From positions 2,976,001-3,040,000 of the forward strand of contig JBLDXI010000019.1 of assembly GCA_047495785.1 (NCBI GenBank): a DNA stretch of 64,000 bases, written 5' to 3'. The notes under the pieces were generated by a model that was not told the origin of the DNA, searched no databases, and was given only the letters and a program-made list of their open reading frames with translations. Position 1 is the stretch's first letter, and every line of letters starts with the position of its first letter. Shown one piece after another: positions 1-25,490 of the stretch. Made by a program: the position numbers and the translations under genes. The stretch is from Lepidodermella squamata (lineage: Eukaryota > Animalia > Gastrotricha).

Positions 1-1
1 A

Positions 2-3000
2 GATCGGTAATTTCCATTTATTTCCATGAAAATTTATTGCAATCTGTTAATAATAATATTATTAATTTGAAGAGATCACGTTCGAGTTGAATGCCACCAC
101 GAAGCCCTGCACACCCCATTCTTAACCTCTTATATTGAAGTAAAGGAATTATCCGGAGCTCTGATTCTAAACCAGGCCAACTCGGTTTTACAATCTAGGC
201 TGTGCGCAACAATGGAAGGGGGTAATTAATTAATTTAAAAAATCAGAAAATTCAAATAAAATAATTATTACTATTTTTAATATTAAAAAGGTTGGACGTT
301 TTCTGTCTTCAGAATCAAGACTAGTGCATTGGAAGAAGACGAACTAGCCCTAGGGGCTGGTCAGCCGAAGAAAAAGCGACGTTTAGAGCAGACATTGGTC
401 GATTTTATACTGTCTCACAGATCGGTTCTGTTCATAGACAATGACGATCGCTTGTGCCTATTCAGAGCCATTGTTCACGCTCTAGCTTACCGTGATTTTA
501 ATGAGCCGAGGGCTGGTCATGAACGTCACGGAAATTTCGAACTATTGCGTCCCTATTATTCGAAAGATCGCGATGCATTAACACCATTGGCAATCCAAGA
601 GCGAGCAGTAGCATTCGAATACGAAGGGCAATTGGCTAAGCAGCTGATGGAGACTGCTGGTATTGATGGAAATAAAGATCGCTATGGCATCACGGATTTT
701 AAAAAAGCTGTTGAAACAATAGGGCTACCGTATCGTGGTAAATTCTGGTACCTGAATACTATTTCGACCCCTTACTAATTCTAAGAATTTAATTTTCTCA
801 GGGATTATTTACAACTTCAAAACGAAACAGGTTGTCGCAATTCATCCTCCGGCAACTGTTGAAATAGCTGACGAGCGAAAAATTTACATTGGTTTTATCA
901 GTAGTCAAACTATTGCTTCACATGTCGAAGGAGGCGTAGGGTCGTTCGAAAGTGTCGGACACTACGTCGGCCTAACTGGTATTTCTAACATATCAGGCGG
1001 AAAAATCATGTGCCCATACTGCTTCATGCTCCATAAGAAAAATTCCGTAGCGCATAAATGCAGTCGAAAGTGCAATAGGTGCCAAACCGTTGGGGCAGAT
1101 TGTAAAAGCAGTCGAGAGCGGGACATAATATGTCGTGGCTCTTGCGGACTATATTACCATGGAAAGCAGTGCTATGAAGCTCATGTCAAGGTGAACCCAA
1201 CTACTGGAAAATCAATCTGCGATTCTTTCTTCATGTGCAGCAAATGTGGAAGAACGTTGCCGGCGAAAGCTCGAAAAAAGCACAAATGTACGTGGTTGCG
1301 CAATTCGAAGCATGCTCAGGGAAATTTAATCTTTTAGGTGAAATTCGAAACTGCCGTGTCTGTAAAGGTGATTTGCCTCCACGCGACGAGTCTGCACCGC
1401 ACGAGTGCGTTATTCAACCTGGTAGGATTGGGAAAGTAAAGCCGAGGTTGCTTGCGTTGTTTGATTTCGAGACAATTCGAGGCAACGATGGCACCCTGAT
1501 ACCTGTAGTTGTTTGTCTCAATTTCTTTTGCGAATCTTGCAAATTCCTACCGAGCTCTGACAAATGTCCCGCAAATTGTACTAATGATGATCCACGCACT
1601 CACTCATTTGTCTCTGACGGAAGTGACAATTCTTGCGTTAACAAGCTAATGCGGTACATTCTTCAGGAGCAGTTCAGAGGTCTCTTCCTGTTGTCTCACA
1701 ATGGAGCTCGGTAATTTTAATTTCGAAAAACACTTTAGTTTTGAGATTTATTTCCCTACTATTACTATAACAAGCTTCGATCACATGTTCATCATGGCTT
1801 GGCTGCAGAGACATGAATACCAATTTGAAACTATCCACCACAACAATAGTGTCATGGAGATCAAAGTTGAAGGCAGCATTGTATTTCGCGACTTTTACTT
1901 GCTAACAATGACGAGTTTGGCAGCGCTTTTCAAAGCATTTGACCTACAAAATGAAGACATTACTGGGAAGCAATTTTTTCCCTACAACCTGTTGACGCCC
2001 GAAAACTGGTTGAAAGACGTAATCAACACCCCAACACTGAATGACTATGACACGTCAAAAATGTCATCTGCGAAAATCGATGAATTGAAACTACATATCG
2101 CACGGAATTCTTCATCTAATTTCAGCCTGAAATCGGAAACTGTTGCGTACTGTCATAGCGATGTCGTATTGCTACAGCAATGTGTAGTCAAATTCCGTGA
2201 GCTGATCCGTGAAATAACAACCATACCGGGGTCTTGTGACGACGGTATCGACCCTATCGCAGGTAAACCTAATAAAAAGTCCCTTTTGAATGAACCTCCA
2301 CCTTAAAAATTTCTGCTTTTGAAGAGTCGCGAACTCTTGCTTCACTATCAAATTTGATTTGGAGAACTCTTTATCTGGATAAAAATCTGCCTATACACCT
2401 GGTACCAAATACAGGTTATTCCGCGGGGTACATTTTTATTATTTTTACTTTTGATGAACATGATGGGAATTCTGTAAACCTCTCAGACCGAATTATTCCC
2501 GCGAATCGGTGATTTGGTTCGAATTTTTATCACGAAAAAGTAACAAGCGGATTCTGCATGCTGGAAATTCGAATGGCGAGGTCACCATCAAGTTGCCAGA
2601 AACTTCAAAATTCTATCGATTCAAACCAGACGGGGTTGTTCTGGATGAAAATGGTCACATTCGCGAAGTATTTCAATATCATTGGCACGGTTGTTTGCGA
2701 TGCTATCCTGACTGCACGAATAAGCTACACCCGGTCCGGAATGTCACCTTTGGTGAGTTGTATCGTGAGACACTGGCGAAAGATCAGGCGGTAATTGACG
2801 CCGGCTATCAGCTAACTGTCACATGGGGATGCGAAGCCAAGCGAATCATGGCTGAAGACGCTGTTTTAGCAGGCGAAATCGAGCGAACACTCACTATTGT
2901 TGACAGAGCTATGCCACGGCAATTTTACACAGGTGGACGCACCGAGGTATAATAATAATAATAACTTTTATGCAAGACCACCAAGTAACAGTCATAATGA

Positions 3001-4875
3001 CTGTTCACAGGTTTTCAGGCTACATTACGAGACATTACCAGGGGAGAAGATAAGGTATTTGGATGTGAATAGTCTGTACCCGGCTGTGCTGAGCTCGAAG
3101 CTTGGATCGGTGCAAGACGGATACGAGGAAGTATTTTTTCCTTACGGCAAGCCATGCCCGAAGGTTTTGGCAATGCGAAACAATGACATTGATCTGCGAG
3201 CACACTTCTTTTCGAAAGAAGATCCAAGCTTTGGACTTACTAGTTGCCTCGTACGAATCAAGCGTGATGTCTACCTGCCAATTCTAGGGTATAGAACGTC
3301 CAGAGGCTGCCTGAAATTCGGATCTTGCCGTTCATGTATGGAACTGGGAGCTCAAGTCGCATGTGTACACAATGACGAAGAACGATGCTTTCATGCTTAC
3401 GTGACAACTTCAGAATTGAGGCTCGCGCTCGATTATGGTCAATGCGAAATCGTCCGCTTCTATGGTACTAAATTTTCCTAATTTAATTGTATCTTCCCTA
3501 TGATATATCGTGGGCATCTCTTCATAGAGACATACCACTACCCGAAGAAATCCAACATGATATTTCGTTCGTTCATTTACGCTGGGCTCAAAGTGAGTAA
3601 TCAGTAGCTTATTTAGCCTTTTGTTTGAACTACCTGTTCACTCTAAAGATCAAGCTCGAATCCAGCGGCTATGATGGGCCTGACATTGATGACTACATTG
3701 AGACGTGCTCAAAACTGTACGGGTTTAAGATGGATAAAGACAAGCTGAAGAACCCCAATTCAGCACTGAGATCCCTTGGGAAATTGCTGTTAAACACTGG
3801 TTGGAATTGTTTAGTTGGCTAATAATTCTGATAACCTTCCATCTCTCTCTCTTTTTATTTTAGCTTATGGAAAACTGGGTCTTAGACCTGATGGAATTCA
3901 AGTTTCATATGTCGACACACCATCAGAGTTGTTGAGACTACTTCGAAGACCTGGCATGAAAATTCATGACATTGCCGTATTGCCTCCGAGTGAAGACTTC
4001 GAAGATGATGGTGATGGGATGCTAACCAAAGAACGGTTACGCATCACTCATTCAACTGAATTGGAAGAGTTCCAACCCTCGTTACCTGTGTCTAACATTG
4101 TTCTAGCAGCCATGGTTACTTCTGCTGCTAGAATTTACCTCTTCAAACAGCTCCATCGGCTCCAGGCAACCTTGTTGTATACTGATACTGGTGAGAATTC
4201 CGAAACAAAGTGCCCTAAATTCAACCATGAGTCGATCTTTCATTCATGTTTTAGACTCTTGCATTTACGTGGAAAAGCCGGGATCAGCCGTGCCACTGCA
4301 CACAGGCGACTGTCTGGGTAAATATATTGAACCGTTCAGAATAAAAAAGAAAAAAAATCGGAATGAATATTCTTAAACTATTATAGGTAACTGGAAAGAT
4401 GAGATCGGATCGGGAGATTACATCACAAAGTAAGGAATGAATATAACGAATTCAAAATCCAAAGTTAAATGTACCTTTCTCAGATTTATTGGTTTGGCAC
4501 CGAAGACGTATCTGATACAACAATCTAACGGAGTAAGCTCTCCTGAACTTCTGACTAAACGAACAATTCTTAATCTAATTATTGTACTAGCAAACTACAA
4601 TTCGAATGAAAGGCTTCCAGCTGAAACCTGCCCTCGAGAGGCAAGTCAACTACGACAGTTTCATGCGACTTCTTCACTCTATCAATGCTGACAAGAACGC
4701 AGACGAGGCTTGTTTGAAGTTGGAACAGCAGGTTTGGCGCCGATTTCAGTGCCATCCCTATGCAAAGGTTGCAATTCAAGATGTGATAAAAACACTCCGA
4801 TTCAAGTTTATGAAACGCTTCATTTCAGATTATGAAACATTCGAAACTGTACCCTTTGGTTATATTAAGGGCTAA
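2..4875 (+). CDS. Protein-primed family B DNA polymerase (pPolB), 5'-partial, 15 introns, ~1315 aa visible
   Basis: GT-AG introns 7-72, 222-290, 738-801, 1288-1337, 1711-1774, 2263-2324, 2428-2486, 2947-3010, 3465-3527, 3593-3648, 3800-3863, 4191-4254, 4318-4386, 4430-4483, 4533-4590. Spliced length 3948 nt is a multiple of 3 with no internal stop. Motifs: ExoI FDFET, ExoII HNGARFD, ExoIII YCHSDV, GGRTEVF, motif A DVNSLYP, motif B KLLLNTAYGKLG, motif C YTDTDS, APKTY, KGF, C-terminal VPFGY. Confidence 0.93.
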
Positions 4876-4892
4876 CGGACTGAATTGTGAGC

Positions 4893-6054
4893 ATGGCGAT
4901 GTACAATAATAATAATAATATCGCCATGCTTTCTGACGAGGACTATGTAACTCTTGATGAGCTTTTACATCCATTATATTATACTGCTAACTTGCCCAGT
5001 TCATTTCGATCTATTAAAATTCTGTACGAAGCTGCAAAGGCCAGGTATCCAAATAATCGGGTCATTACCTATAAAACAGTTCGAGAATGGCTATCGGCTC
5101 AACCGGCTTATAGCCTTTTCCGGCAAGCTTCTACGCGCAATCGTAAGCTTTATAGGCGAGTTGCGGTACATGCTAAGGGTTCCACCTTTGCTGGGGACCT
5201 AATGGAAATTACGAAGGAATATCAATTTTTCAACGCGAGAAAGAAGTACGTCCTATGCATAAAGGACCTTTTTACCCGCAAAACTTGGTTGAGGGTGTTG
5301 AAAAATAAAACAGCTGCTATAGTGCTTGGTGCGATTAAAGGTATCATGTCCGAAATCGACTTGATCCCTAATCAGGTAATTACTGACAAAGGTAAGAGAA
5401 AACATCTGTCTGCCGCAGTGTCTTAATCTCCATTTAAAATCTCTGATCTAATTAGGATCCGAGTTTCGCGATAAGAAAGTTCAAAAGTACTTTTCTGATC
5501 TCGGCGCCAGGTTTTACCTCACTAATTCTCCCAAGAAGGTGGGTGCAATCGAGACATTTATCAAGAACCTTCGAATGCGATTGGTTCGATATATGATGGC
5601 TAATAACACTAAAAATTTCATCGATAAACTTGACGACATTTTGGATGCAATCAATAGCTGCCCAAATTCAACAACCGGCTTTAGCCCTGATGAGTTATGG
5701 AACCTTAACCCTGAATTGAATGTGGCGCTTTCGCAACCCGGTTTCATGACTGTTTATGAGGATCACCCAGACAATTTAGTCGCTCATCGAAACGCTTTCA
5801 AGACGATTCGCCAAATACGAGTGAAATTCAATTTGGGAGATCGCGTTCGGATCTTGCAACAGCGGAAAATTTTCAAAAACCGAATTAAACACCCGACTTT
5901 TAGCGACAGAATCTACCATGTGACTGAAATTCTTCCTCAAAATGATCACTCGACGGTGGCTTACCGCGTATCATCTGACCCCAACGATAAATCCGGGCAA
6001 CTGAAGCGTGTTTTCTACACGCATGAGCTCCAGAAGTTATATAAAGAGAAGTGA
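4893..6054 (+). CDS. Retroviral-like (rve) DDE integrase, 1 intron (5392-5455), ~365 aa
   Basis: Spliced product reads ...AGDLME...IKDLFTRKTW...ITDK/GSEF...KVGAIETFIKNLR...; D,D,E triad intact; C-terminal FNLGDRVRI...VFYTHELQK. Confidence 0.92.
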
Positions 6055-6069
6055 TTTCGCACGCACCTT

Positions 6070-6342
6070 ATGGTAATGTCATCCATTTCAAATCCCGAAC
6101 TTGCGTCAACTGATCGTCGATCTCAGCAACTTCGACCTTTTCTCCTTGCAACGAGAACCGCAACTGCTTTTCAACCACCGAGTTTATCAAGCGTACCTAG
6201 ATCCTCTTCATCATTAGCATCGCGATCAAAGCAAGTACTCGCCCTGGCTCTTACTCTGGTTTTACTGCTTTTGACCTTGGTTGTCCACCATCTACTATAT
6301 CCAACCGTACCTACTCTACCTAATAATGCTGTCAGTCAATAG
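6070..6342 (+). CDS. Small Ser-rich protein with one hydrophobic (putative TM) helix, within the Maverick
   Basis: 90-aa ATG ORF preceded by TATATAAA (~6038-6045); hydrophobic stretch VLALALTLVLLLLTLVV. Confidence 0.5.
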   Translation: MVMSSISNPELASTDRRSQQLRPFLLATRTATAFQPPSLSSVPRSSSSLASRSKQVLALALTLVLLLLTLVVHHLLYPTVPTLPNNAVSQ

Positions 6343-7511
6343 CTACTACGGCAAGGACTTGATTCTAGTTCTACCATCTCATGCGTCATCAGATTTGTAT
6401 CCTCAAAATACTGCTGCAGAGTTCAAAGTCAAGCTTCCACATATTATTGGTAAGTTGAATAAACTCGTATCGTCTTGCATCTTGTTACGCCTTCCGATAA
6501 TAGATTTAGGGAGCGTTGGCTCTCATGAAGCTGCCCTCCTCGAGGTTTGCACTCCATCGCAGGTTGTTTCGCTGAAAAAGTCCACTTTTTTCGTTTTCAA
6601 AACCTCTTGGTTGGACCGTGGCACTCTTGAGGAATCACCTTACAACAACCCTTTGGAGTTTGCCGAGTGCCATGTGGGTGGTCGCATCTACGAGACAATG
6701 ACAGATTACATCAATGACTTGCTCTCTGCTATGCCTGAATGGGCTGAAATCAACATGGCCTATGAGGAAGGCAAAGATCGCATTCGCTTTGACCTAAAAC
6801 CCGGCTTCGGGTTGTACCTTCCCGAATTTACGGGGCAGATTCTTGGTTTTGGAAAGGCTGTCGTTTTAATTAACGTCCCTCCAGATGAAGAGTCTAGTGG
6901 GGATGAAGATTGGCAGCAGAGACATGAACGGGAATATTTGAGCCTCTTCAGTCATTTATTGCGATTTATACTGGCCGGAAAAGATGGCAAAAAGTTGGTA
7001 ATGGCAAATGGGAAAAAACCTACATATCAGACCGACGAAGATGGTAAATTAACCCTGAATCTTTATCAGAGGAGTTTGGCAGATGAGGTCTCATTGGCCG
7101 CTGAGGTTGCTTATCGATCCACGCGCAAAGATCAGCCGCTCTACTCTGAATTCATTCCGCAAATTCATTTCCACACTCCGCTGATTTATTGCTACACGGA
7201 CCTCATTGAGCCGGTTATTTGCGGTGATAAAAGTGTCCCTTTGCTGCGAGTTTTTCCCGCGTCTTCTGGCGCATCCAACAAGCAAAAGTACAACCTGATC
7301 AGTTTTGCTGGCTCAACACCGTACTATCACCCAATCAAGTCGCAATTTTTGGACACCCTGAGCTTCATGATGTGCCTCGATTCAGGTATCTGTGATTTTC
7401 TTCTTCATCGTCAGCTGTGATTTTTACGAATTGATGATTTTAGGAGAGAAATTAGTATTTAAACAAGGGAAAAGTATGCTGACAATCCACATACGTCCCA
7501 TTCGCCATTAA
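6326..7511 (+). CDS. Minor capsid (penton-like) protein, 2 introns (6450-6503, 7386-7443), ~357 aa
   Basis: N-terminal LVLPSHASSDLYPQNTAAEFKVKLPHIIDL...HEAALLEV and C-terminal IYCYTDLIEPVICGDKSVPLLR...DSGEKLVFKQGKSMLTIHIRP match the Maverick minor capsid pattern. Confidence 0.88.
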
Positions 7512-7513
7512 AA

Positions 7514-8035
7514 ATGCGACAACCTATTAGCTCCGATTCATACCTGCACTGGTTTCAGCAACAACAGACTGGTCGTGGGATTTCTTCTTCAATCCAACCA
7601 TTCACTGGACCCTCTATTGTTTTGATGCCACAAGTCGGTAATGGCTTGGGTAAGAACGGCGATTAGTTTTCATCAACATTCTTAGGAATTTCTCGTGTGT
7701 TGTTTTTTTTCTTTTCAAAAAAAATATTAGGTACTTGGCTCCGAGGTTGGGTACGAAATAGCCTGATTCCATTTCTACCCAGGCTCTTGAACACTGCTGC
7801 TACAGCGGCATCCAACATAGCTTCAGATATCTCCACGCGTCAACAGAGTGGCGCAGATCTCAATGTAGCTGAGGTTTTTAAAAACCGAGGATTGGAAGGT
7901 CTCAAGTCTGTTGGCAAAGAAGCTGTTAATCATTTAGCTTCTCAGTATGGATCTGGAAAGCGCAAACGCAAAGGGAAACCAAAAAAGCGTGCAGTTTTGT
8001 TCAAGCAGCCAAAATCGGATCGCATTTTGTTCTAA
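7514..8035 (+). CDS. Conserved Maverick QxGxG-motif basic protein (probable virion core protein/protease substrate), 1 intron (7650-7730), ~146 aa
   Basis: QTGRG...QVGNGL/GTWLRGWVRNSLIPFL (amphipathic)...QYGSGKRKRKGKPKKR; lies between the minor and major capsid genes. Confidence 0.8.
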
Positions 8036-8111
8036 TTAAGTGTGTGTATATAAAGGATCTTCAGAAATTGAATAAATTGTAATCGCCCAAGTGCTTTACG
8101 TTTTTACAATC

Positions 8112-9461
8112 ATGTCTGACCATGCTATTAGAGCCGAATTAGCTGTTTTTGCCTCACCTGCATTCACAAATGAAATCACAGGAACGCACGTAACTGAATG
8201 CTTTCCAACAACATCGATAAGTGGAGCCCAGCAGATAACATTTGTTATCCCTGCTTCTGAAGCCTTCACAGACCTCAGTCACACCTATTTATCAATCAAG
8301 GCTACGCTAACACCGACGAATGATGACATCACAACAGAGACATTTTGCTGCGCGGGCGTAAATAACCTGTTGAACTCCTTATTCGAGGACTGTCACATTT
8401 ATCTCAACGAATGCTTAATCACGCAGAATTCTTCGCTCCATAGCTACCAGGCATATATGGAAAACTTCTTATCGGCAACACAAGATATCCAGTCTACAAA
8501 GCTCACCAACGTTGGTTGGTACCCTGATACCCCCGGGTTGTTCAACAATCTGAAGGAAAATGCAGGGTTCAAATCTCGTCGTGCGCTGGTGAAGAATTTC
8601 GAACAAAAACCCGTCATCTCTTTGCTGGGGAAAATTTCGACCGATTTCTTCAATCAGGAACGATATTTGATCCCACAAACAAGCGTGCGAATTAAGCTGA
8701 CTCTACACAAGCCAGAGTTTTTCCTTATGTCTGATAATCTGGCAAATTACGAGTTCAAACTTCTGGAGGCGGTCTTGCTAGTAAAACGAGTTGAGGTTGT
8801 TCCCGAGGTCACCATTGCACTTGAAAAGGCGCTATTGGAAGCACCGGCTCGTTACAGTTTCACTCATACGGTGACTAAGCCATTCAATTTGCCTACTAAT
8901 ATGACGGCCATTTTCCTCAACAACGTTGTATTAGGAGTGATTCCCGAAAAGATTGTATTAGGTAAAAAGAAAAAACCCATTTTTTTTCAGACCATTCCAA
9001 TATAACTTGTTTTACCATTGCAAGCCATGGTCGAGGATGAAGGTATTCAGGGTTCAGCTGCCACCAACCCTTTCAGGTTTCAACATTTCGGTCTTCAGAA
9101 TATAACAATTACCATCGATGGAAAGGCTGTTGGTGGCACACCTCTTGCAATGGATTTCGAAGCTAACGATTGTGCCCGAGTTTACCAACTCATGCAAGAT
9201 ACCATATTTCCGACTTCGAATTCAAAGTGTGTCAACATAAGTCGGGATGATTTCGTCAAAGGTGGTGGCTTTGTCATGGCATTCGACTTGAGTCAGGATT
9301 CGGATCCTAATGGACGTTTGACGCAGACAGGACAGATGGCGATCAACCTTCTCTTCAGCAAGAAACTGACTTCTCCAACGACTTTGATTGCCGTAATGTA
9401 TTATAAAAACAAGACGCTAGAAATTCAGGCCAACAGAACAGTCCTGCATAATTTCTTCTAA
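8112..9461 (+). CDS. Major capsid protein (double jelly-roll), 1 intron (8962-9024), ~428 aa
   Basis: AELAVF...ITFVIP...DLSHTYL...NNLLNSLFED...DFFNQERYLIP...IPEKIVL/AMV...NPFRFQHF...AFDLS, the Polinton MCP pattern; TATATAAA upstream at ~8047. Confidence 0.92.
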
Positions 9462-9467
9462 GAAAAC

Positions 9468-9959
9468 ATGAACACCCTGGAACTGAATGCTTTGCTCCAT
9501 TCCGACCCTATTATCAATCAAGGTGTTTACGCTACAATTCCGTGCGATATGCTTCATTATTACGAAAACTATGATATGCATACTAAGCCTCTTTACCTAA
9601 TCGTGAATGCCTCTCCAAGCTCGACAGCAGGCACTCATTGGATAGCCATACATGTAACGGAAACATCAATTACCTTCATGGACTCTTATGGTCAGGATTC
9701 GGGATCTTGGTCGGTTCGTCTGGACCATTTCATCGGTAACATGGCGAATTGTGGCAGGAAGCTCGTATCATTCAATCACCGCGGCCTTCAACCGTTTGAC
9801 AGTGCCTACTGTGGTTTGTATTGCCTGGTATTCCTACATCAGTCAGCTCGCGGTGTTTCCCTACCTAATATTCTTTCGTTAATCACTAATCATGGCTGGA
9901 ATACGAGAGCCGAAAATGACGCTTTTGTTGCACGCTTTGTTAAGGACAACTTTGCATAG
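9468..9959 (+). CDS. Adenain-like (clan CE) maturation cysteine protease, original copy
   Basis: GTHW (His), FMDSYG (Asp), LQ...CGLYC (Gln, Cys); intronless, 163 aa. Confidence 0.92.
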   Translation: MNTLELNALLHSDPIINQGVYATIPCDMLHYYENYDMHTKPLYLIVNASPSSTAGTHWIAIHVTETSITFMDSYGQDSGSWSVRLDHFIGNMANCGRKLVSFNHRGLQPFDSAYCGLYCLVFLHQSARGVSLPNILSLITNHGWNTRAENDAFVARFVKDNFA

Positions 9960-9982
9960 TATATAAAAAGAGCTGCTTGTAA

Positions 9983-10832
9983 ATGTTACCTACCATACAT
10001 AATATTAATAAATCCATAACGGAAGATTATATGACGATGACTTCGTTTACCACAGCTTTCCAGGCACCTTGTACTATAATCATTTCTGGCCCTAGTCAGG
10101 GTGGAAAATCAACACTAATCAAAGATATTTTGCTGTACCCTGGCTCATTCGATAGACCTATCGATAGGGTAGTTTGGTTTCGAGGTATTGCTCAACCAGG
10201 TCATGTCGAACTCAGTCAACAAGTTCGGGCAGTGCGTGGAATTCCGATCGAATATCGGGATGACATAACAACCTTTCACGAGGCTGATTACCTGGGACCT
10301 GGGCATAAGCTGCTGGTATTCGATGATAATTACTGCGATGCCAAGGATATGAAGCAAGTTGCAGAACTGTTTTACCGCGGTTCGCATCACAGCCAAATTT
10401 CAGTAATAATGGCGCAAAATAATTTATTTCCTCGGTTTGTTTACTGCTATATGAATAATATATTATAACCATGATTTTTAGAGGAAAGTTTTCCCGAGAT
10501 GTCACCTTGAATGCGAGATACATTATTGTTTTTCGCTCACCTTGTGACATGACTCAGTTCGGACACCTGGCTCGTCGAATTTTACCCAAAGACTGGAGAT
10601 TCTTGCAAGGTTAACAATTTAAATTTCATTTGAATATTACCGCTTCACATCATTAAAATATATAGAGAGCTTTGACATTGCTACGAGCGCGCCTTTTGGT
10701 TATCTTTTAATAGATAACACATCATCTTGCCCGCCGTTACTCCGTTTTCGAAACTTTATCGGATCTCGAACTGGCAACGTTTTTGTAAAGGTGGAAGACG
10801 TTCCCAGCTTGAACCTACCACTGACTATATAA
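9983..10832 (+). CDS. A32/FtsK-like genome packaging ATPase, copy 1, introns 10435-10481 and 10610-10665
   Basis: Walker A GPSQGGKST, Walker B LLVFDD, GSHH, QNNLFPR/GKFSRDVTLNARYII, PFGYLLID. The true start may be ATG 10031, given the TATA box at ~9960. Confidence 0.9.
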
Positions 10833-11032
10833 AAAGGACTCTGTGTTACAGTAGGAATAAACACATCAAACTCTTGATTATGTTCGGTTTATTGTGTTAC
10901 TACTACTACGAATACTACTACTACTACTACAGTATATGTTAAGCATACGTAGATTAAGTAAGCGATATATAGTATATATAGTATTGTCCAGTGTCAGTTT
11001 AGTCCATTGAGCCGAGAACGAATTCTCTCTCT

Positions 11033-11476
11033 CTACTCGTTCAGGTTCGAGAGCATGTAGTAGATCATGTGCTGCAGTTCCATGAAGACTGCATCTGAGG
11101 CACAAAAACCATCTTGCGAGAATTCCTGCGAATTTTCTTGTCCAATGATGATATTACCCGCAGCAGGCAGGAAAAGGCGGACATCGACATATGTGCGGGG
11201 TGACCCGTTCGGACGAAATACCTTGGCGTGAAACATTCCTCCGATGTGATGTTTCGGTCCATTGCACATCATCTTCCCTCTCGGTAGTTTCAGCTCCTGC
11301 TTGATCTTGTCAACCCATGAGCCTTCGATCTGCATGCTTTCATAAATCATTCGCAGCTCTCGAGCTGAGAGATACAAACCCTTGCGTGTATAGTAGAGTT
11401 TGTTCACTTCGATTGCATGACCAATGAAAAACTCAAGATCTGGAACGTGATCATCATGATTTCGACGCAAGATCAT
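11033..11476 (-). CDS. N-terminally truncated copy of the PC4-like gene, created by the duplication
   Basis: Identical to the C-terminal 147 aa of 14951-15604; lacks the native N-terminus and promoter. Confidence 0.45.
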   Translation of the reverse strand: MILRRNHDDHVPDLEFFIGHAIEVNKLYYTRKGLYLSARELRMIYESMQIEGSWVDKIKQELKLPRGKMMCNGPKHHIGGMFHAKVFRPNGSPRTYVDVRLFLPAAGNIIIGQENSQEFSQDGFCASDAVFMELQHMIYYMLSNLNE

Positions 11477-11921
11477 GAAGGTGGGCTCTTACGCTACAAT
11501 TCCGTGCGATATGCTTCATTATTACGAAAACTATGATATGCATACTAAGCCTCTTTACCTAATCGTGAATGCCTCTCCAAGCTCGACAGCAGGCACTCAT
11601 TGGATAGCCATACATGTAACGGAAACATCAATTACCTTCATGGACTCTTATGGTCAGGATTCGGGATCTTGGTCGGTTCGTCTGGACCATTTCATCGGTA
11701 ACATGGCGAATTGTGGCAGGAAGCTCGTATCATTCAATCACCGCGGCCTTCAACCGTTTGACAGTGCCTACTGTGGTTTGTATTGCCTGGTATTCCTACA
11801 TCAGTCAGCTCGCGGTGTTTCCCTACCTAATATTCTTTCGTTAATCACTAATCATGGCTGGAATACGAGAGCCGAAAATGACGCTTTTGTTGCACGCTTT
11901 GTTAAGGACAACTTTGCATAG
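11475..11921 (+). CDS. Protease copy 2 with a junction-derived N-terminus (MKVGS)
   Basis: In-frame ATG upstream of the junction; all catalytic residues retained. Confidence 0.55.
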   Translation: MKVGSYATIPCDMLHYYENYDMHTKPLYLIVNASPSSTAGTHWIAIHVTETSITFMDSYGQDSGSWSVRLDHFIGNMANCGRKLVSFNHRGLQPFDSAYCGLYCLVFLHQSARGVSLPNILSLITNHGWNTRAENDAFVARFVKDNFA

Positions 11922-11944
11922 TATATAAAAAGAGCTGCTTGTAA

Positions 11945-12794
11945 ATGTTACCTACCATACATAATATTAATAAATCCATAACGGAAGATTATATGACGAT
12001 GACTTCGTTTACCACAGCTTTCCAGGCACCTTGTACTATAATCATTTCTGGCCCTAGTCAGGGTGGAAAATCAACACTAATCAAAGATATTTTGCTGTAC
12101 CCTGGCTCATTCGATAGACCTATCGATAGGGTAGTTTGGTTTCGAGGTATTGCTCAACCAGGTCATGTCGAACTCAGTCAACAAGTTCGGGCAGTGCGTG
12201 GAATTCCGATCGAATATCGGGATGACATAACAACCTTTCACGAGGCTGATTACCTGGGACCTGGGCATAAGCTGCTGGTATTCGATGATAATTACTGCGA
12301 TGCCAAGGATATGAAGCAAGTTGCAGAACTGTTTTACCGCGGTTCGCATCACAGCCAAATTTCAGTAATAATGGCGCAAAATAATTTATTTCCTCGGTTT
12401 GTTTACTGCTATATGAATAATATATTATAACCATGATTTTTAGAGGAAAGTTTTCCCGAGATGTCACCTTGAATGCGAGATACATTATTGTTTTTCGCTC
12501 ACCTTGTGACATGACTCAGTTCGGACACCTGGCTCGTCGAATTTTACCCAAAGACTGGAGATTCTTGCAAGGTTAACAATTTAAATTTCATTTGAATATT
12601 ACCGCTTCACATCATTAAAATATATAGAGAGCTTTGACATTGCTACGAGCGCGCCTTTTGGTTATCTTTTAATAGATAACACATCATCTTGCCCGCCGTT
12701 ACTCCGTTTTCGAAACTTTATCGGATCTCGAACTGGCAACGTTTTTGTAAAGGTGGAAGACGTTCCCAGCTTGAACCTACCACTGACTATATAA
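11945..12794 (+). CDS. Packaging ATPase copy 2 (complete, 2 introns)
   Basis: Identical to copy 1 at +1962, with its own TATA box. Confidence 0.85.
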
Positions 12795-12988
12795 AAAGGA
12801 CTCTGTGTTACAGTAGGAATAAACACATCAAACTCTTGATTATGTTCGGTTTATTGTGTTACTACTACTACGAATACTACTACTACTACTACAGTATATG
12901 TTAAGCATACGTAGATTAAGTAAGCGATTATATATAGTATTGTCCAGTGTCAGTTTAGTCCATTGAGCCGAGAACGAATTCTCTCTCT

Positions 12989-13432
12989 CTACTCGTTCAG
13001 GTTCGAGAGCATGTAGTAGATCATGTGCTGCAGTTCCATGAAGACTGCATCTGAGGCACAAAAACCATCTTGCGAGAATTCCTGCGAATTTTCTTGTCCA
13101 ATGATGATATTACCCGCAGCAGGCAGGAAAAGGCGGACATCGACATATGTGCGGGGTGACCCGTTCGGACGAAATACCTTGGCGTGAAACATTCCTCCGA
13201 TGTGATGTTTCGGTCCATTGCACATCATCTTCCCTCTCGGTAGTTTCAGCTCCTGCTTGATCTTGTCAACCCATGAGCCTTCGATCTGCATGCTTTCATA
13301 AATCATTCGCAGCTCTCGAGCTGAGAGATACAAACCCTTGCGTGTATAGTAGAGTTTGTTCACTTCGATTGCATGACCAATGAAAAACTCAAGATCTGGA
13401 ACGTGATCATCATGATTTCGACGCAAGATCAT
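12989..13432 (-). CDS. N-terminally truncated PC4-like copy
   Basis: Identical to 11033-11476. Confidence 0.45.
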   Translation of the reverse strand: MILRRNHDDHVPDLEFFIGHAIEVNKLYYTRKGLYLSARELRMIYESMQIEGSWVDKIKQELKLPRGKMMCNGPKHHIGGMFHAKVFRPNGSPRTYVDVRLFLPAAGNIIIGQENSQEFSQDGFCASDAVFMELQHMIYYMLSNLNE

Positions 13433-13877
13433 GAAGGTGGGCTCTTACGCTACAATTCCGTGCGATATGCTTCATTATTACGAAAACTATGATATGCATA
13501 CTAAGCCTCTTTACCTAATCGTGAATGCCTCTCCAAGCTCGACAGCAGGCACTCATTGGATAGCCATACATGTAACGGAAACATCAATTACCTTCATGGA
13601 CTCTTATGGTCAGGATTCGGGATCTTGGTCGGTTCGTCTGGACCATTTCATCGGTAACATGGCGAATTGTGGCAGGAAGCTCGTATCATTCAATCACCGC
13701 GGCCTTCAACCGTTTGACAGTGCCTACTGTGGTTTGTATTGCCTGGTATTCCTACATCAGTCAGCTCGCGGTGTTTCCCTACCTAATATTCTTTCGTTAA
13801 TCACTAATCATGGCTGGAATACGAGAGCCGAAAATGACGCTTTTGTTGCACGCTTTGTTAAGGACAACTTTGCATAG
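13431..13877 (+). CDS. Protease copy 3 with a junction-derived N-terminus
   Basis: Identical to 11475-11921. Confidence 0.55.
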   Translation: MKVGSYATIPCDMLHYYENYDMHTKPLYLIVNASPSSTAGTHWIAIHVTETSITFMDSYGQDSGSWSVRLDHFIGNMANCGRKLVSFNHRGLQPFDSAYCGLYCLVFLHQSARGVSLPNILSLITNHGWNTRAENDAFVARFVKDNFA

Positions 13878-13900
13878 TATATAAAAAGAGCTGCTTGTAA

Positions 13901-14750
13901 ATGTTACCTACCATACATAATATTAATAAATCCATAACGGAAGATTATATGACGATGACTTCGTTTACCACAGCTTTCCAGGCACCTTGTACTATAATCA
14001 TTTCTGGCCCTAGTCAGGGTGGAAAATCAACACTAATCAAAGATATTTTGCTGTACCCTGGCTCATTCGATAGACCTATCGATAGGGTAGTTTGGTTTCG
14101 AGGTATTGCTCAACCAGGTCATGTCGAACTCAGTCAACAAGTTCGGGCAGTGCGTGGAATTCCGATCGAATATCGGGATGACATAACAACCTTTCACGAG
14201 GCTGATTACCTGGGACCTGGGCATAAGCTGCTGGTATTCGATGATAATTACTGCGATGCCAAGGATATGAAGCAAGTTGCAGAACTGTTTTACCGCGGTT
14301 CGCATCACAGCCAAATTTCAGTAATAATGGCGCAAAATAATTTATTTCCTCGGTTTGTTTACTGCTATATGAATAATATATTATAACCATGATTTTTAGA
14401 GGAAAGTTTTCCCGAGATGTCACCTTGAATGCGAGATACATTATTGTTTTTCGCTCACCTTGTGACATGACTCAGTTCGGACACCTGGCTCGTCGAATTT
14501 TACCCAAAGACTGGAGATTCTTGCAAGGTTAACAATTTAAATTTCATTTGAATATTACCGCTTCACATCATTAAAATATATAGAGAGCTTTGACATTGCT
14601 ACGAGCGCGCCTTTTGGTTATCTTTTAATAGATAACACATCATCTTGCCCGCCGTTACTCCGTTTTCGAAACTTTATCGGATCTCGAACTGGCAACGTTT
14701 TTGTAAAGGTGGAAGACGTTCCCAGCTTGAACCTACCACTGACTATATAA
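13901..14750 (+). CDS. Packaging ATPase copy 3 (complete, 2 introns)
   Basis: Identical to copy 1 at +3918. Confidence 0.85.
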
Positions 14751-14950
14751 AAAGGACTCTGTGTTACAGTAGGAATAAACACATCAAACTCTTGATTATG
14801 TTCGGTTTATTGTGTTACTACTACTACGAATACTACTACTACTACTACAGTATATGTTAAGCATACGTAGATTAAGTAAGCGATATATAGTATATATAGT
14901 ATTGTCCAGTGTCAGTTTAGTCCATTGAGCCGAGAACGAATTCTCTCTCT

Positions 14951-15604
14951 CTACTCGTTCAGGTTCGAGAGCATGTAGTAGATCATGTGCTGCAGTTCCA
15001 TGAAGACTGCATCTGAGGCACAAAAACCATCTTGCGAGAATTCCTGCGAATTTTCTTGTCCAATGATGATATTACCCGCAGCAGGCAGGAAAAGGCGGAC
15101 ATCGACATATGTGCGGGGTGACCCGTTCGGACGAAATACCTTGGCGTGAAACATTCCTCCGATGTGATGTTTCGGTCCATTGCACATCATCTTCCCTCTC
15201 GGTAGTTTCAGCTCCTGCTTGATCTTGTCAACCCATGAGCCTTCGATCTGCATGCTTTCATAAATCATTCGCAGCTCTCGAGCTGAGAGATACAAACCCT
15301 TGCGTGTATAGTAGAGTTTGTTCACTTCGATTGCATGACCAATGAAAAACTCAAGATCTGGAACGTGATCATCATGATTTCGACGCAAGATCATGAAGGT
15401 GGGCTCTTTACAGCTTGTTATCGACTGCCTGGCCAAAGTGTAGTGTACTCGTTGAAATCGACTGAGGTCATTCCAACCAGGAATCAAACCGCTTCGATTT
15501 GAGCCGGCAGCAGCAGCAGCAGCATGACCACGTGGAGGTAGCAATGGACCATCGATTGTTGGCGATGAGGGGGTATCCATGGTGGTGGTGGTGGTAGTTT
15601 CCAT
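14951..15604 (-). CDS. Protein with two putative PC4/Sub1-like ssDNA-binding domains (full-length copy)
   Basis: YTRKGLYLSARELRMI and TYVDVRLF...SQDGFCASDAVFMEL resemble the PC4 motifs YVDIRE and TKKGISL; TATAAAA on the minus strand at ~15694-15700. Confidence 0.65.
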   Translation of the reverse strand: METTTTTTMDTPSSPTIDGPLLPPRGHAAAAAAGSNRSGLIPGWNDLSRFQRVHYTLARQSITSCKEPTFMILRRNHDDHVPDLEFFIGHAIEVNKLYYTRKGLYLSARELRMIYESMQIEGSWVDKIKQELKLPRGKMMCNGPKHHIGGMFHAKVFRPNGSPRTYVDVRLFLPAAGNIIIGQENSQEFSQDGFCASDAVFMELQHMIYYMLSNLNE

Positions 15605-15787
15605 CAAATAAAAGAAGTTATCTCAGGATATATACTACCAAAATGTAAAGCAAGCGTTAGTTATGACTATTTCCACCCTTCTCCGCAGGCAACCTTTTAT
15701 ACAGGTCGGACCGTTAGTTGTCATATAGGTATTGTTTGATTAAGTATATTAACCGTTTCTAGTGACAGTTTGTTAATTAATAATATT

Positions 15788-16171
15788 ATGGCGCCAAAGG
15801 CGCAAACGTCAAAGCGGCAACGAACTCTTGACTTCCTACGGTTGCTTACCCAGGCACCACCTAGCCAGCGGCGACGGTTGCTCGGGTTGGCGCCAACTCG
15901 TATAGTTGTTCTGCTAACCGAAATCTGTCTAAATTTGCTACGTCATAACCTGTCAGCGGACTCGAAGACAGTTAAGAAGCTACGTACATATAAAGCAACT
16001 ATCGAGCGCATTTCCAAGTTTAAATCACCAGACATCAACCGCCAATTGCTAGTTCAAAACGGCAGTGGTGCTTTCATTCCCCTACTTATTTCAGCTGCTA
16101 GTAGCGTTCTACCTTCAGTTATTGACGGTATTTTGGCACTTCGTAAAAGCAGCACTAATCGTGATGTCTGA
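15788..16171 (+). CDS. Conserved Polinton basic protein with an adenovirus pX-like C-terminus ('GasderminX'-type)
   Basis: LRLLTQAPPSQRRRLL...LTEICLNLLRHNL...KKLRTYK...LVQNGSGAFIPLLISAASSVLP resembles the Q-x-G-G-F-L-P-L-L/pX signature. Confidence 0.75.
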   Translation: MAPKAQTSKRQRTLDFLRLLTQAPPSQRRRLLGLAPTRIVVLLTEICLNLLRHNLSADSKTVKKLRTYKATIERISKFKSPDINRQLLVQNGSGAFIPLLISAASSVLPSVIDGILALRKSSTNRDV

Positions 16172-17120
16172 GAAGCATAGTCGCAAGTTGGTCCTCATGC
16201 AAGACTTGGCGGCAGATGGTAATGGAAATGTGACGACGACGACGACGCCAGTTACTACGCGCGCGGAAGGTGTTTGTGATAAAGATGCACTACAACGAAG
16301 AGCAATGACGAGGCAGCGTTTGTTTGATGGGCCCGCCTATTCCAAGGTGGAAGATTTGGAAAATCAAATGACTGATATACTACAGCAACCAAATGTTAAC
16401 TCGCAGAGTGCACGAGAGTACAACTACCTGTTCGGGGAACTTGAACGGCTCAAGCAAAACTTTCGACTGTTCCAAAATACCAGAGTTAACAACCAGACTG
16501 ATCAAGCACCTACGAAAGAGTCACCTCGACCTCCTGCTCCCACACCTGTTACTGGCACTACGCCTACCGCGGCGGCTGCTGCTGCTGCTTCTGATCCGGT
16601 AGCCGGTGGTAGTGATACTGCTGTAGCAGGCACGGTTACTAATGGGGACGCTACAACCAATTACCTCAATGCTCGCTTTGGCAGTTTAAAGTCTGATCAA
16701 CTTGAAAAAGCATCCTCTATTTTGAATCATCTGCGTTCGAATTTGTCACCTGATGCTACCTTCACATTGGATGGATCATCGTCCTCCTCAACAATCACTT
16801 TTATTCGGGATGACAGTACCTTGGCTGAGATCCCGGTCGATACTCTGGTTGAAGTCTTAACAAAAGCTCCAAGCAAATTATCAGTCTCCGCAAAGCAGCT
16901 GTTTCAACCAGTTGCGGAACTCTTGTCAAAGACCTCTGCACCCATGCATCTATTCGCAAAGTCGAGCATTGGTAAATCGGTCACGGCGATGACTAATGCT
17001 CGCTATCAAAATCCGACGCGTCCGCCGCGCCAACGGTCTATGTCGTCGTCATCGTTCCTTCGAGACATTGTTACACCTGATATTGCAACCATGTTTCCGT
17101 GGGAACACGTGGGAACATGA
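16164..17120 (+). CDS. Conserved Polinton hypothetical protein (~318 aa)
   Basis: RKLVL N-terminus and LENQMTDILQQP...AREYNYLFGELERL helix, as recalled from Polinton ORFs following the pX-like gene; overlaps the previous stop codon. Confidence 0.65.
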   Translation: MSEKHSRKLVLMQDLAADGNGNVTTTTTPVTTRAEGVCDKDALQRRAMTRQRLFDGPAYSKVEDLENQMTDILQQPNVNSQSAREYNYLFGELERLKQNFRLFQNTRVNNQTDQAPTKESPRPPAPTPVTGTTPTAAAAAAASDPVAGGSDTAVAGTVTNGDATTNYLNARFGSLKSDQLEKASSILNHLRSNLSPDATFTLDGSSSSSTITFIRDDSTLAEIPVDTLVEVLTKAPSKLSVSAKQLFQPVAELLSKTSAPMHLFAKSSIGKSVTAMTNARYQNPTRPPRQRSMSSSSFLRDIVTPDIATMFPWEHVGT

Positions 17121-17142
17121 TAAAAGATTGTGGTTGCTGCTG

Positions 17143-17178
<36 letters not shown>

Positions 17179-17271
17179 TTACTACTACTATCGTAATAAA
17201 ATTTGCAATAAAACACGACCTGCAGGGGTGTCTCAATCGTTCATTCTTTCATTCATTCATTCATTCATTCA
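17143..17271 (+). repeat. Microsatellites (TAC)n 17143-17190 and (TTCA)n 17240-17271
   Basis: Seen directly. Confidence 0.9.
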
Positions 17272-17329
17272 TACAACTGCATTTACCAAACCTGCCGCAG
17301 TCACATGATCATGGGAACATTTTTCAACA

Positions 17330-17543
17330 AACAACCTTGATATTTATTATTCAATTTTCATTTTCGCGCCAAAAATTACCAACGACCTTGACATTTATTT
17401 TCAAATTTTCATTTTCGCGCCAAAAATTACAAACGACCTTGACATTTATTTTCAAATTTTTCATTTTCGCGCCAAAAATTACAAACGACCTTGACATTTA
17501 TTTTCAAATTTTCGCGCCAAAACTTTCTCAAACGACCTTGACA
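17330..17543 (+). repeat. Subterminal ~51-nt tandem repeats (~4.3 copies) in the presumed right TIR
   Basis: Unit AACGACCTTGACATTTATTTTCAAATTTTCATTTTCGCGCCAAAAATTAC. Confidence 0.9.
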
Positions 17544-17623
17544 TAATCATTATGATTCATTTCTCCGACCGTGGGAAAATATTTGAATTTTTGACCGTTG
17601 CTGGAGACCCCCCCCTTACTACT

Positions 17624-17686
17624 CAATTGATAGATAAAATTGGGTAGCCTCACCATAACGCCTAGGAATAATGCAAGCTTTACCAT
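17624..17686 (-). CDS. Exon 1 (17686-17654, MVKLALFLGVM) and 30 nt of intron of a 4-Cys secreted peptide gene, interrupted by the Maverick
   Basis: Homologous to exon 1 and the GTGAGG intron of the copies at 18.7, 21.35 and 25.49 kb; homology stops exactly at the Maverick terminus. Confidence 0.85.
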
Positions 17687-18425
17687 GATGAAATCTTAAA
17701 GTTAAAATAATAATTGTTATCACAAAGTTTGAAACAAGAAAATTTAAGGGAGGCAACAACTGCTTCTCGAAATCGACTCACTCATTCATCGCATACCGAA
17801 TATACAGTCGTAGCGCAAGCAGCAGCCAACAGATATGACATTAGCGAAAACACCAGCACAGGGGACGGGGGACATCTGCTATATGTAATAACATTTCCCT
17901 TCCTAAACTCCGTGTGTCTTAAATGAAAACTTCAATACAAAAACAATTCTTTTTATTACGCTGAAGGCAAATAAAAAGAAGCTGATGTTGAATAATAAGA
18001 AAACGTTAGTTGAAGTTCAATTGTTCACAGCAAGGACCAAGGACTCGTTGCAGACGATATTGCGCGAAAACGGTCGCCAAGGCTTATATAAAGCAGGGCA
18101 AAAACAGCCAAATTCCTCGGGTCGCAAACCCTCGACACCTGGGCAACCTCGGCAACGTAGAGCTGTCCGTGGCTGAAGACACTGGTGTGTAGAAGGGATA
18201 AGCCGAGGAAGTTGAAAGTCAGGCCGTGACTTTTATTGAAGGTCGTAGCAGAAGCGATTTTCCTGATTTGTCATTCTATGGCATAATTCCGATTTCTTAC
18301 TTCGCATTATATCTATAATGACACAGCAAGTGAATATTTTATTATGCCATTGATTGGAATACTTGGTGGGCAATTCATAAGAAAGGATAATTTAAAGTTG
18401 TATAGCATGAATACAGCATGTCTAA

Positions 18426-18714
18426 TCAGCTAGGTCTGCAGACGGCGGTAAACCCGCCTCTTTTCCATTTACCGGGTTTGCCAGAATAGGTTGTACACTT
18501 GCTCCCAATCTCAACGCAACCGAAATCAGGAGCCAACATCAACTTGCGAGTACAAGAGGCTATTTGCGCCTCTACTTGCTCGTCAAACGGAAGGCCTTCT
18601 GCCATGAAAAGTAAAGCGACAGTGGCCTGTTGGAATATAACCGAATGATTATAATGGATAGATCAAATCTGGTAGCCTCACCATAACGCCGATGAACAAC
18701 GCCAGCTTTACCAT
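18426..18714 (-). CDS. Small secreted 4-Cys peptide, family A (77 aa; intron 18627-18681)
   Basis: MVKLALFIGVM/ATVALLFMAEGLPFDEQVEAQIASCTRKLMLAPDFGCVEIGSKCTTYSGKPGKWKRGGFTAVCRPS*. Confidence 0.82.
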
Positions 18715-18957
18715 GATAAAAAATTTGAAAACAAATTTTTACCACGAAGTTTGAAATTAGGATATGTATTTGAATTAGAGTATGCCTCACTTAAGTGAGG
18801 CAGCAACTACTTCTTCAAATCGACTCACTTATTCATCGCCTACTGAATATACAGTCTTAGCGCAAGCAGCGTTACGTCAGCGAAAACACAAGTATAGGGT
18901 ACCGCTGCTGCTATGTAATATTATTATCTACTTGGGTTAATAGCCGCTTTTACAATA

Positions 18958-19070
18958 CATTGTGGTCTGATACTAGTGCAGGGGGCGAAGTTCATTCTTC
19001 AATTTTTCCAAGCTCCTCATTTAAAAGATGATTGAACTTCGCCCCCCTGCCCTAGTATCAGACCACAATG
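18958..19070. mobile_element. MITE (Tc1/mariner-type, TA-flanked)
   Basis: ~38-nt TIRs CATTGTGGTCTGATACTAG...CTAGTATCAGACCACAATG with TA on both sides. Confidence 0.75.
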
Positions 19071-19653
19071 TACAAATCTGTTTCTATTTCTGACTTATTA
19101 GCAATTAAGTCCCACAATTAGGCGTGGCGCAATCGTCGAGAGCGATGAAAATGCCAGATGACATTTAATTTTTTTGAAATTCGAGTTCCAATTTGAAGGC
19201 AACTGTAGCAAGGAATGTAATTATTGATGGCATTGAAGGTATATAATGAAGTCAGTGTTGAAGATAGTAAATATTGAGGTATCAGCGGTGAAAAATCTTT
19301 TCCATCTTTTCCATCTTTAAAATAATTAGGTTAGCCGCAGCGCTAAATTAAACTTAAAAATTAATAAAAGTCCAAAATTATTATCAATCAATTATATCTT
19401 ATACTGGTCAGTGAGCATAGCCCCTCTAATGGCTTCACGGGAAGAGACCCGGCATTTTAAATAAATTTCGAGAATTTATCGTCAGACAAACAAAAGATCC
19501 ATATGCCTATCGAAAATAAAAAAAATTGATTTCCCACTCGACTACGTCGCCCGCATATATCCGCATAATTATTCCGCATTTATTTATAGTTTTGTTCATG
19601 GGGATGCTCATTCAAATTTATAATTAAATCAAAAACCTTTGCTGGGTGAGTAC

Positions 19654-20067
19654 AAATCTGTCGCCCGAAATTAAATAAGCGCGTCCCAGTTTTGTAGTAA
19701 CCAGTTTTGAAAACATGAAAACTAGTTTATTTGTCCGAAGTTTCGGCAGAGTTCAATCATGCCATCATCAGGGAAATCACATTAATGAAAGAGCAAATTA
19801 TTTCGGGCCGTTATCTTCCATTAAACTATTCGCATAATTCGGTAAAAAAAAGTGATATAGCGTCCAGCCGATAAAACCTGCATTAACGCATTGACCGCTG
19901 TTATATTTAGAGGCGCGCACTTGGGGCGCACATTTTGATTTTGAGGGCGGCGATCACGCAACAGTATTTACTATGTCTGCGCACTTATTTAATTTTGGAG
20001 CGACATGGGAGCGACGTTTGAAAAGGGGCGCATTTATTTAATATTTACTTTTGGGCGACAGTTTTGG
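19654..20067. mobile_element. Degenerate MITE-like element
   Basis: Imperfect inverted ends CAAATCTGTCGCCCGAAA / TTTTGGGCGACAGTTTTG. Confidence 0.4.
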
Positions 20068-21052: not shown

Positions 21053-21353
21053 TCAGTTAGTTCTGCAGACAGCAGTAAACCCGCCTCTTTTCCATTTACC
21101 AGATTTGCCAGTATAGGTTGTACACTTGCTCCCAATCTCAACGCAACCGAACCCATGAGTTCTCAACGCAACCATCATCCAATTGCGAATGCAAATGGTT
21201 TTTTCCGCCTCTGCCTGCTCGTCAACCGGAAGGCCTTCAGCCAAGAAAAGTAGGGCGAGAGCGGCCTGTTGGAAAATAACTGAATGATTATAATTGATAG
21301 AGCAAATTGCGTAGCCTCACCATAACACTGATGAGCAATGCAAGCTTTGCCAT
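21053..21353 (-). CDS. Small secreted 4-Cys peptide, family A (81 aa; intron 21266-21320)
   Basis: MAKLALLISVM/AALALLFLAEGLPVDEQAEAEKTICIRNWMMVALRTHGFGCVEIGSKCTTYTGKSGKWKRGGFTAVCRTN*. Confidence 0.82.
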
Positions 21354-22092
21354 AACGAAATTTAAAAGTTAGAAAAATTCTAGTTAACACGAAGTTTTAA
21401 ACTGAAAAGCGAATATATGTAAGTGAGGCAGCAACGACTTCTCGTAATTGACTCGCTTATTCATCGCTTACTCGTATCGCAAGTAGCTGCCTAATGCGTT
21501 TACGTCAGCCGAAAAAACCAGCATGAATGACACCTGATCCAACAATATGATTACGATATCGGGCTCAATTACAAGCCTACAGCGATAAAATGAAAGGCGG
21601 AAACACAGAAAAATGGTAAATGGAATAGCGAAATTGAAAGCTAACGCATAACGGAACATGACGCCATAGAGAAATTGAGACCATTTTCTCTATGGCAAAA
21701 CTCCGGCGCACAACTCTGACGATCGTGTGGCCGGTGACCGGTGACCGGTCCTCACGCGGTAATCTTGGTTGGCCAGGCTTCGCCAATACGGCTCATCCCA
21801 GGGGCAAAAAGCGAGACGGATTGACTTGGTGGATGTTGAGACGGCACCAACGCAGTCACCTCGTTGAAATCCAAACATCGACCGTCCGAACGGACAATTG
21901 TGATATGCCCATTTTTTCCTTCATCTTTGCTCGATAAAGATCGGATGAAAATACAGGGTGCCCACATCCTGCTTGGCGACAAGCCCATTTGTGCGTTACG
22001 TGTCTATGGCTAAGAAGTTTGTTACGGTACAGAACGACTAAGCAGCGGAAAATGAAGAAGAAGGCGATGAGGAAGAAGAAGCGCAATCAGCA

Positions 22093-25201: not shown

Positions 25202-25490
25202 TCAGATACGTCTGCAGGAAGCGTAAAACTCGCCTTTTCTCCATTTACCAGGTTTGCCAGTATAGGTTGAACACTTGCTCCCAATCTCAACGCAACCGAT
25301 ACCACGAGCGTTCATCCAATTCCGGGCGCAAGCGACTCTTCCCGCCTCTACCTGCTGTTCAAACGGCAGGCCTTCAGCCAAGAAAAATAGAGCGAGAGCG
25401 GCCTGTTCGAAAAGAATTATATGAATATAATTGATAGAGCAAATTGTGCAGCCTCACCATAATGCCGATAAACAATGCAAGCTTCGCCAT
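25202..25490 (-). CDS. Small secreted 4-Cys peptide, family A (77 aa; intron 25403-25457)
   Basis: MAKLALFIGIM/AALALFFLAEGLPFEQQVEAGRVACARNWMNARGIGCVEIGSKCSTYTGKPGKWRKGEFYASCRRI*. Confidence 0.82.

Follow-up and report, generated by a model that had tools for sequence, protein, structure and literature searches.

Maverick element and neighbouring genes

The window, by which we mean the whole 64,000-nt stretch of DNA analysed, opens with a mobile element whose right end lies in the first intron of a peptide gene belonging to a cluster of four copies, three intact and one interrupted (Table 1). The element is a Maverick/Polinton, as it carries a protein-primed DNA polymerase B (pPolB), an integrase, a protease and a capsid-like ORF, and has an (ACT)2 end and a 6-bp target-site duplication (TSD). 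Scanning 33 window proteins with Pfam, we matched the polymerase to PF03175 (DNA_pol_B_2; E 3.8e-17, 62.8 bits against a cut-off of 25.8), with a second piece at E 4.8e-4, and the protease to PF00770 (Peptidase_C5; E 1.3e-4, 22.2 bits against a cut-off of 21.3). The integrase matches rve with E 0.0013, the split of its domain keeping the match under the curated cut-off; its second piece is weakly IS481-like (E 0.019), and the flanks of the motif lie on both sides of the gap. The first capsid piece scores 0.97 in the Atlas against a double-jelly-roll (DJR)-like cluster in which 10% of members carry PF21738, and 0.94-0.95 against clusters of capsid proteins; these scores are a feature lead, not an alignment. 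This ORF has no match in Pfam or PDB, and the capsid search returned one weak locus (L001). The ATPase candidate combines its Walker A-like motif with weak P-loop matches and no Pfam match, and ORF 6326-7420, blank in Pfam and NCBIfam, is a positional candidate for the minor capsid protein. The two ORFs nearest the right end (15788-17120) are encoded on the plus strand. The element measures at least 17.6 kb, of which ~3.9 kb is internal triplication. The triplicated ~1.96-kb unit spans the candidate ATPase piece, a portion of the protease and an ORF on the opposite strand, and may be either a real amplification or an assembly artefact. No longer polymerase relative was present among 383 candidates, the element tip had no exact match in viral contigs, and Rfam gave none in 15000-30000.

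Table 1. Features of the interrupted locus and its surroundings (positions in the window)
Feature	Position	Strand	Basis or remark
Maverick/Polinton, left end beyond the window	1..17623	.	Pfam and capsid-like Atlas matches
Protein-primed DNA polymerase B, many ORF pieces	287..4875	+	two 64-nt GT-AG gaps, near 3800 and 4190
Retroviral-like integrase, two ORF pieces	4893..6054	+	64-nt GT-AG gap near 5390 between the pieces
Likely major capsid protein (double jelly roll), two ORF pieces	8112..9461	+	Atlas feature score
Adenovirus-type protease	9468-9959	+	Pfam Peptidase_C5
Candidate packaging ATPase, first piece	9983-10468	+	Walker A-like motif by eye
Tandem triplication of a ~1.96-kb segment, 99.7-100% identical	9527..15400	.	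right limit at least 15400
Subterminal 51-52-nt repeats, four minus-strand AATAAA facing inward	17327..17544	.	
Terminal (ACT)2 motif, right end of the element	17618..17623	+	X1 terminal-repeat contig also ends exactly at 17623
6-bp TSD CAATTG, palindrome	17624..17629	.	right junction, left junction, once in the empty site
Intron nt 1-30, interrupted copy	17624..17653	-	paralogue comparison
Exon 1 (MVKLALFLGVM), interrupted copy	17654..17686	-	33 nt, ATG at 17686
Upstream region kept as in paralogues, facing the element; likely promoter and 5' UTR	17687..17858	-	sequence comparison
Intact paralogue 1	18426..18714	-	two exons, 55-nt intron, 4-Cys peptide; ATG 18714
Intact paralogue 2	21053..21353	-	two exons, 55-nt intron; ATG 21353
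Intact paralogue 3	25202..25490	-	two exons, 55-nt intron; ATG 25490

All three catalytic motifs examined, two in pPolB and one in the integrase, are split by a 64-nt gap (3800-3863, 4191-4254 and 5392-5455; sites picked by eye). The gaps are phase-1 and AT-rich (0.62-0.69), run from GT to TTAG and are mutually unlike, with 19-25 of 64 bases shared; they are likely spliceosomal introns. Many further ORF breaks in 1-10600 look alike by eye. A crude intron scan of 1-10600 found 25 candidates of 50-70 nt on the plus strand versus 15 on the minus strand, a weak excess reached by 10 of 100 shuffles, and, at 62-66 nt, 10 versus 4, reached by 3 of 100. Intronless core genes, a common but non-defining Maverick trait, are thus not what this element displays if the putative introns are real.

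In each of the three intact paralogues, a 33-nt exon 1 and a 55-nt intron precede an exon 2 that stays open for 66-70 codons and encodes four invariant cysteines. The hydrophobic N-terminus indicates that the peptides are likely secreted. A scan for M[VA]KL gave six matches, four of which are this family. All three paralogues have A(A/T)TAAA 82-85 nt downstream of the stop, so the host likely uses this poly(A) signal. A word search yielded no candidate relative and the Atlas no usable match; none of the three exon-2 peptides matched Pfam, the one compared with NCBIfam matched nothing there, and no sequence match was obtained in PDB. The predicted peptide model (pLDDT 62.6) had no fold match at E <= 0.001. 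The sole profile-search match, a 609-aa tandem repeat, was rejected as spurious.

A short inverted-repeat element with 30-nt arms (18956-19072), a high-copy MITE-like repeat, reaches a summed depth above 2000 in the contigs of public run X1, and further inverted repeats lie at 23117-23288, 24920-25118, 26221-26338, 26965-27527 and 39567-40072. A repeat of ~196 bp occurs twice in inverted orientation, 93% identical and 15 kb apart (22453-22648 and 37493-37683), its first copy just behind a Gag-like CCHC stretch seen by eye (22240-22290). An open frame of 522 aa on the minus strand (29049-30617) abounds in CxCxC repeats and matches nothing in Pfam. Host genes in 32539-57458 encode a papain-like protease with I29 propeptide, a RING protein, a GT10 fucosyltransferase, a two-pore potassium channel and an ANF-receptor-domain protein adjoining a hydrophobic ORF; as a set they point to an animal host. 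For the fucosyltransferase, a search gave two hits with 31% identity. Degenerate CCTAAC telomere-like arrays lie internally at 51395-51455 and 55815-55875.

Junctions and the interrupted gene copy

The preliminary description placed the right end of the Maverick inside the small intron of a peptide gene, and this junction is borne out base by base. On the plus strand, a C-run, TT and ACTACT are followed by CAATTG and the flank; on the minus strand, a 33-nt exon leads through the GTGAGG donor and 30 intron bases into the element. What follows ACTACT is, as described, the intron and exon 1 of the family, encoding MVKLALFLGVM, and the alignment with the paralogues ends at the junction, where homology is cut 30 nt into the intron. 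Compared with the three paralogues, the interrupted copy shares 26-28 of 33 exon 1 bases and 25-26 of 30 intron bases, with BLAST E values of 8.5e-50 to 4.7e-34, far above chance. Its exon 1, donor and upstream region display no decay and are conserved as in the intact paralogues. No fourth exon 2 was found in the 64-kb window by tblastn.

The left junction and the empty site were read from contigs of X1, which contain 0.87 of the window's words; the run possibly comes from the window's own source sample, or from a pool. At 17585-17670, 12 contigs were placed, and our statements rest on eight contigs and the four loose ends listed. The right-junction contig covers 17600-17653. One loose end, 23 nt behind 17629, consists of the element tip, CAATTG and new sequence; it represents the left junction as seen from the opposite strand and matches the last 24 bases of the element in inverted sense. 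The predicted recurrence of CAATTG at the left end is therein observed. A second loose end, 23 nt before 17624, belongs to a contig with a single CAATTG and no element, i.e. the empty site, and is the exact reverse complement of the 23-nt end of the left junction. The remaining two listed loose ends are from paralogue 2. No X1 contig and no long read spans the whole element, and the 23-nt flank had no exact match in metagenome contigs.

The sequence of the left flank departs from what was anticipated. The remaining ~25 intron bases and the whole of exon 2 had been expected before the left CAATTG; the 23 visible bases differ from these, and of the two hallmarks whose joint absence was to speak against the insertion, CAATTG is present and exon 2 is represented by only nine similar bases. 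The first 14 flank bases are identical to paralogue intron nt 31-44 at 9, 10 and 10 positions, and the last nine correspond to exon 2 nt 22-30 (9/9 in paralogue 1, 7/9 in the two others). Between intron nt 31 and exon 2 nt 22 the paralogues have 46 bases versus 14 in the interrupted copy, so that ~32 nt, including the splice acceptor and the first seven exon 2 codons, appear to be lost in both alleles. The score of this alignment was reached by none of 5000 shuffles and by 3 of 5000 random 23-mers from the window; when a random 9-mer took the place of the last nine bases while the first 14 stayed as they are, 121 of 5000 trials reached it. Outside the cluster, 117 of 55592 9-mers on the plus strand and 79 of 55592 on the minus strand fall in the paralogue set (0.14-0.21%).

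The same 23 bases occur in the filled and the empty allele, which makes the lesion likely older than the insertion; the gene copy was probably dead when the element arrived, a reading that draws on these 23 bases. The earlier suggestion that the insertion disabled the gene thus finds no support in that form, as the empty allele carries the same defective-looking flank. That the Maverick knocked out a working gene, with an empty allele that still works by means of a diverged intron end or a nearby cryptic acceptor, is in our view unlikely. The conservation of exon 1, donor and upstream region speaks for it, and a strongly diverged but intact intron end is conceivable because intron nt 54-55, the AG of the paralogues, fall just beyond the visible flank. 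However, the pyrimidine tract of the paralogues gives way to purine-rich sequence at flank bases 15-23, the same bases that agree with exon 2 of paralogue 1 at every position. Retention of the intron would lead to an in-frame stop at the third flank codon, and the visible flank offers a single AG, ending at base 21, whose use would, by paralogue numbering, cost 28 bases of the exon and put the rest out of frame. Against our own reading, none of the X1 contigs listed on 17200-19200 is assignable to the left-flank exon 2.

Empty site, possible antisense transcription and element ends

The right-junction contig has a depth of 35.9; by subtraction, the empty contig comes to 34.5 and the left-junction contig to 51.6. 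Together, right junction and empty site reach 70.4, against a flank depth of 65.8 and depths of 66.6-68.2 in neighbouring contigs, and the empty share is 0.49; note that contig depth is not copy number and that short contigs are noisy, as the two junctions themselves display (51.6 versus 35.9). On 17200-19200, single-copy X1 contigs have depths of 66-68, and one starts exactly at 17624, hinting at a branch in the assembly at this position. As the empty site coexists with the insertion at about half depth, the insertion is likely polymorphic and recent, and the simplest reading is that X1 represents a heterozygote, or a pool with the insertion at about half frequency. The summed depth of left junction and empty site (86.1) is close to that of an 86-deep contig on paralogue 1; an assignment to this contig was rejected, its base at 18605 differing from the flank.

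The empty site could alternatively be a duplicated second locus, or result from excision in part of the cells, and so not be an allele. X1 contig depth over exon 2 sums to up to 421, with extra variant contigs (18406-18700), which suggests that X1 holds more peptide-family copies or alleles than the window and leaves room for a second locus. A duplicate is nevertheless expected to double the depth of the right flank, which is at single-copy depth (65.8) with an even split between filled and empty forms, and we consider this alternative quite improbable.

Further insertions of the Maverick family are present: X1 terminal contigs, among those listed, have depths of 130-536, and run X2 contains a different flank. 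A shared terminal-repeat contig of depth 461 stops exactly at 17623. Most terminal contigs listed (X1 depths 295 and 130, and the X2 junction too) continue with CA, which hints at a target-site preference (17624-17625), and a variant of the terminal C-run with one extra C exists.

These other copies bear on a further idea, already raised in part by the preliminary description, that antisense transcription from the orphaned promoter runs into the element and supplies small RNAs that silence the Maverick family, the insertion acting as a trap locus. The orientation is right for it: the upstream region is conserved and the two nearest element ORFs read on the opposite, plus strand. The terminal repeat also offers an AG preceded by pyrimidines, 53 nt from the orphaned donor (17601-17653, minus strand), so that exon 1 could be spliced into the end of the element, this distance being close to the native 55-nt intron size. 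Against this, the minus strand carries four AATAAA at 122-276 nt into the element, ahead of the closest ORF end, which is 503 nt in; 0.57 would be expected in these 503 nt, the four being repeat copies and hence not independent. Transcripts from the orphaned promoter would probably terminate early at these poly(A) hexamers in the subterminal repeats. Moreover, since several other family ends exist in X1, a single half-frequency allele would make a poor master locus, and we judge the silencing role very improbable. Run X2, which is at best presumed to be RNA, covers non-coding stretches and gives no cover at 17669-17936; it was accordingly left out of any statement on expression, and a third run, X3, placed no contigs. 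We speculate that the inward AATAAA present in each 51-52-nt subterminal repeat might protect both ends of the element against host read-through.

Finally, because CAATTG is a palindrome, element ends of TG...CA with a 2-bp AT duplication would also fit the three junctions and would suit the CA continuation of most terminal contigs listed (295, 130, and the X2 junction), but this is scarcely credible given that the shared contig of depth 461 stops at 17623, that one of four arithmetic solutions is a hidden branch of 166.7 without C (295 + 166.7 matching 461), and that Mavericks are published as having (AGT)2//(ACT)2 termini together with 6-bp TSDs (PMC8097293).

Order of events and relation to known elements

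Taken together, we favour, with a probability of about 0.75, a Maverick inserted in the first intron of one of four peptide gene copies, with CAATTG at both ends and the empty form beside it, the insertion being likely recent and polymorphic and the copy likely a pseudogene already through a ~32-nt deletion. DDE integrases make staggered cuts whose repair yields TSDs. The deletion would have come first, removing the acceptor and the start of exon 2 and turning the copy into a pseudogene; the DDE integrase of the element would then have cut the intron in staggered fashion, repair duplicating the 6-mer CAATTG. The half-depth split would correspond to two alleles. The insertion presumably persists because a dead copy accompanied by three intact ones makes it cost-free, and its persistence in this redundant, repeat-rich cluster would be near-neutral. 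For the same reason, a target probably already dead and flanked by three intact copies, the locus carries little weight as a knock-out or silencing story. What makes it valuable is the clean record it gives of a recent Maverick move in an animal, with both junctions, an exact TSD and an empty site at about half depth.

A broader proposal is that this represents a currently mobile animal Maverick lineage with spliceosomal introns inside the catalytic motifs of polymerase and integrase, recent activity being dated by the segregating insertion; we regard it as an even call. As the putative introns lie inside catalytic motifs, such a Maverick would have to use the host spliceosome, and the copy in the window could have been moved by the proteins of another copy. 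If the gaps are spliced, this would be an intron-bearing Maverick that is still transposing, contrary to the usual intronless description of intact elements.

Birth-and-death clusters of small Cys-rich secreted peptides are a general pattern. The cluster in the window resembles them in its tandem two-exon genes, hydrophobic N-terminus, four invariant cysteines and one probably dead copy, and differs in that its peptides match no nameable family in the databases searched.

In the accessible parts of the literature, published Mavericks have (AGT)2//(ACT)2 termini and a 6-bp TSD (PMC8097293), and nematode Polintons measure 13-25 kb with 5-8-bp TSDs (10.1101/2023.08.22.554363). The element in the window agrees with animal Mavericks/Polintons so described in its ends, its 6-bp TSD, its pPolB, integrase, protease and capsid-like genes, its candidate ATPase-like gene, and in its size so far, which is within the reported 13-25 kb. 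Descriptions of intact Mavericks from vertebrates and Caenorhabditis call them intronless (10.1101/2022.07.12.499685; PMC8097293), whereas short GT-AG gaps interrupt both polymerase and integrase in this element; the insertion in the window further differs from the published ones, as far as their accessible descriptions go, in that its empty site is seen directly, at about half depth. We found no report of spliceosomal introns in animal Maverick core genes in a search made mostly at title and abstract level, in a collection with few subscription papers.

In Caenorhabditis elegans, Polinton insertions in the host gene eri-6/7 vary between strains, and a large intronic insertion lowers expression of the downstream exons, according to the available part of the report (10.1101/2024.01.15.575659). 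A variable Polinton within a host gene is the same kind of event as the insertion described here; on that account, however, the eri-6/7 case concerns a working gene and remnants only, whereas the window has a long element, an exact TSD and a likely dead target. Outside animals, group I introns are reported in protist PLVs (PMC12220804, accessible part), and introners in dinoflagellate maverick-polinton-like elements, full-length ones included (PMC11957031, likewise). The latter elements are alike in carrying spliceosomal-type introns inside integrated copies, those of the window being putative; as far as the available text tells, they differ in that their introns form repeated introner families in protists, whereas the three gaps in the window share 19-25 of 64 bases and lie in an element whose host is an animal.
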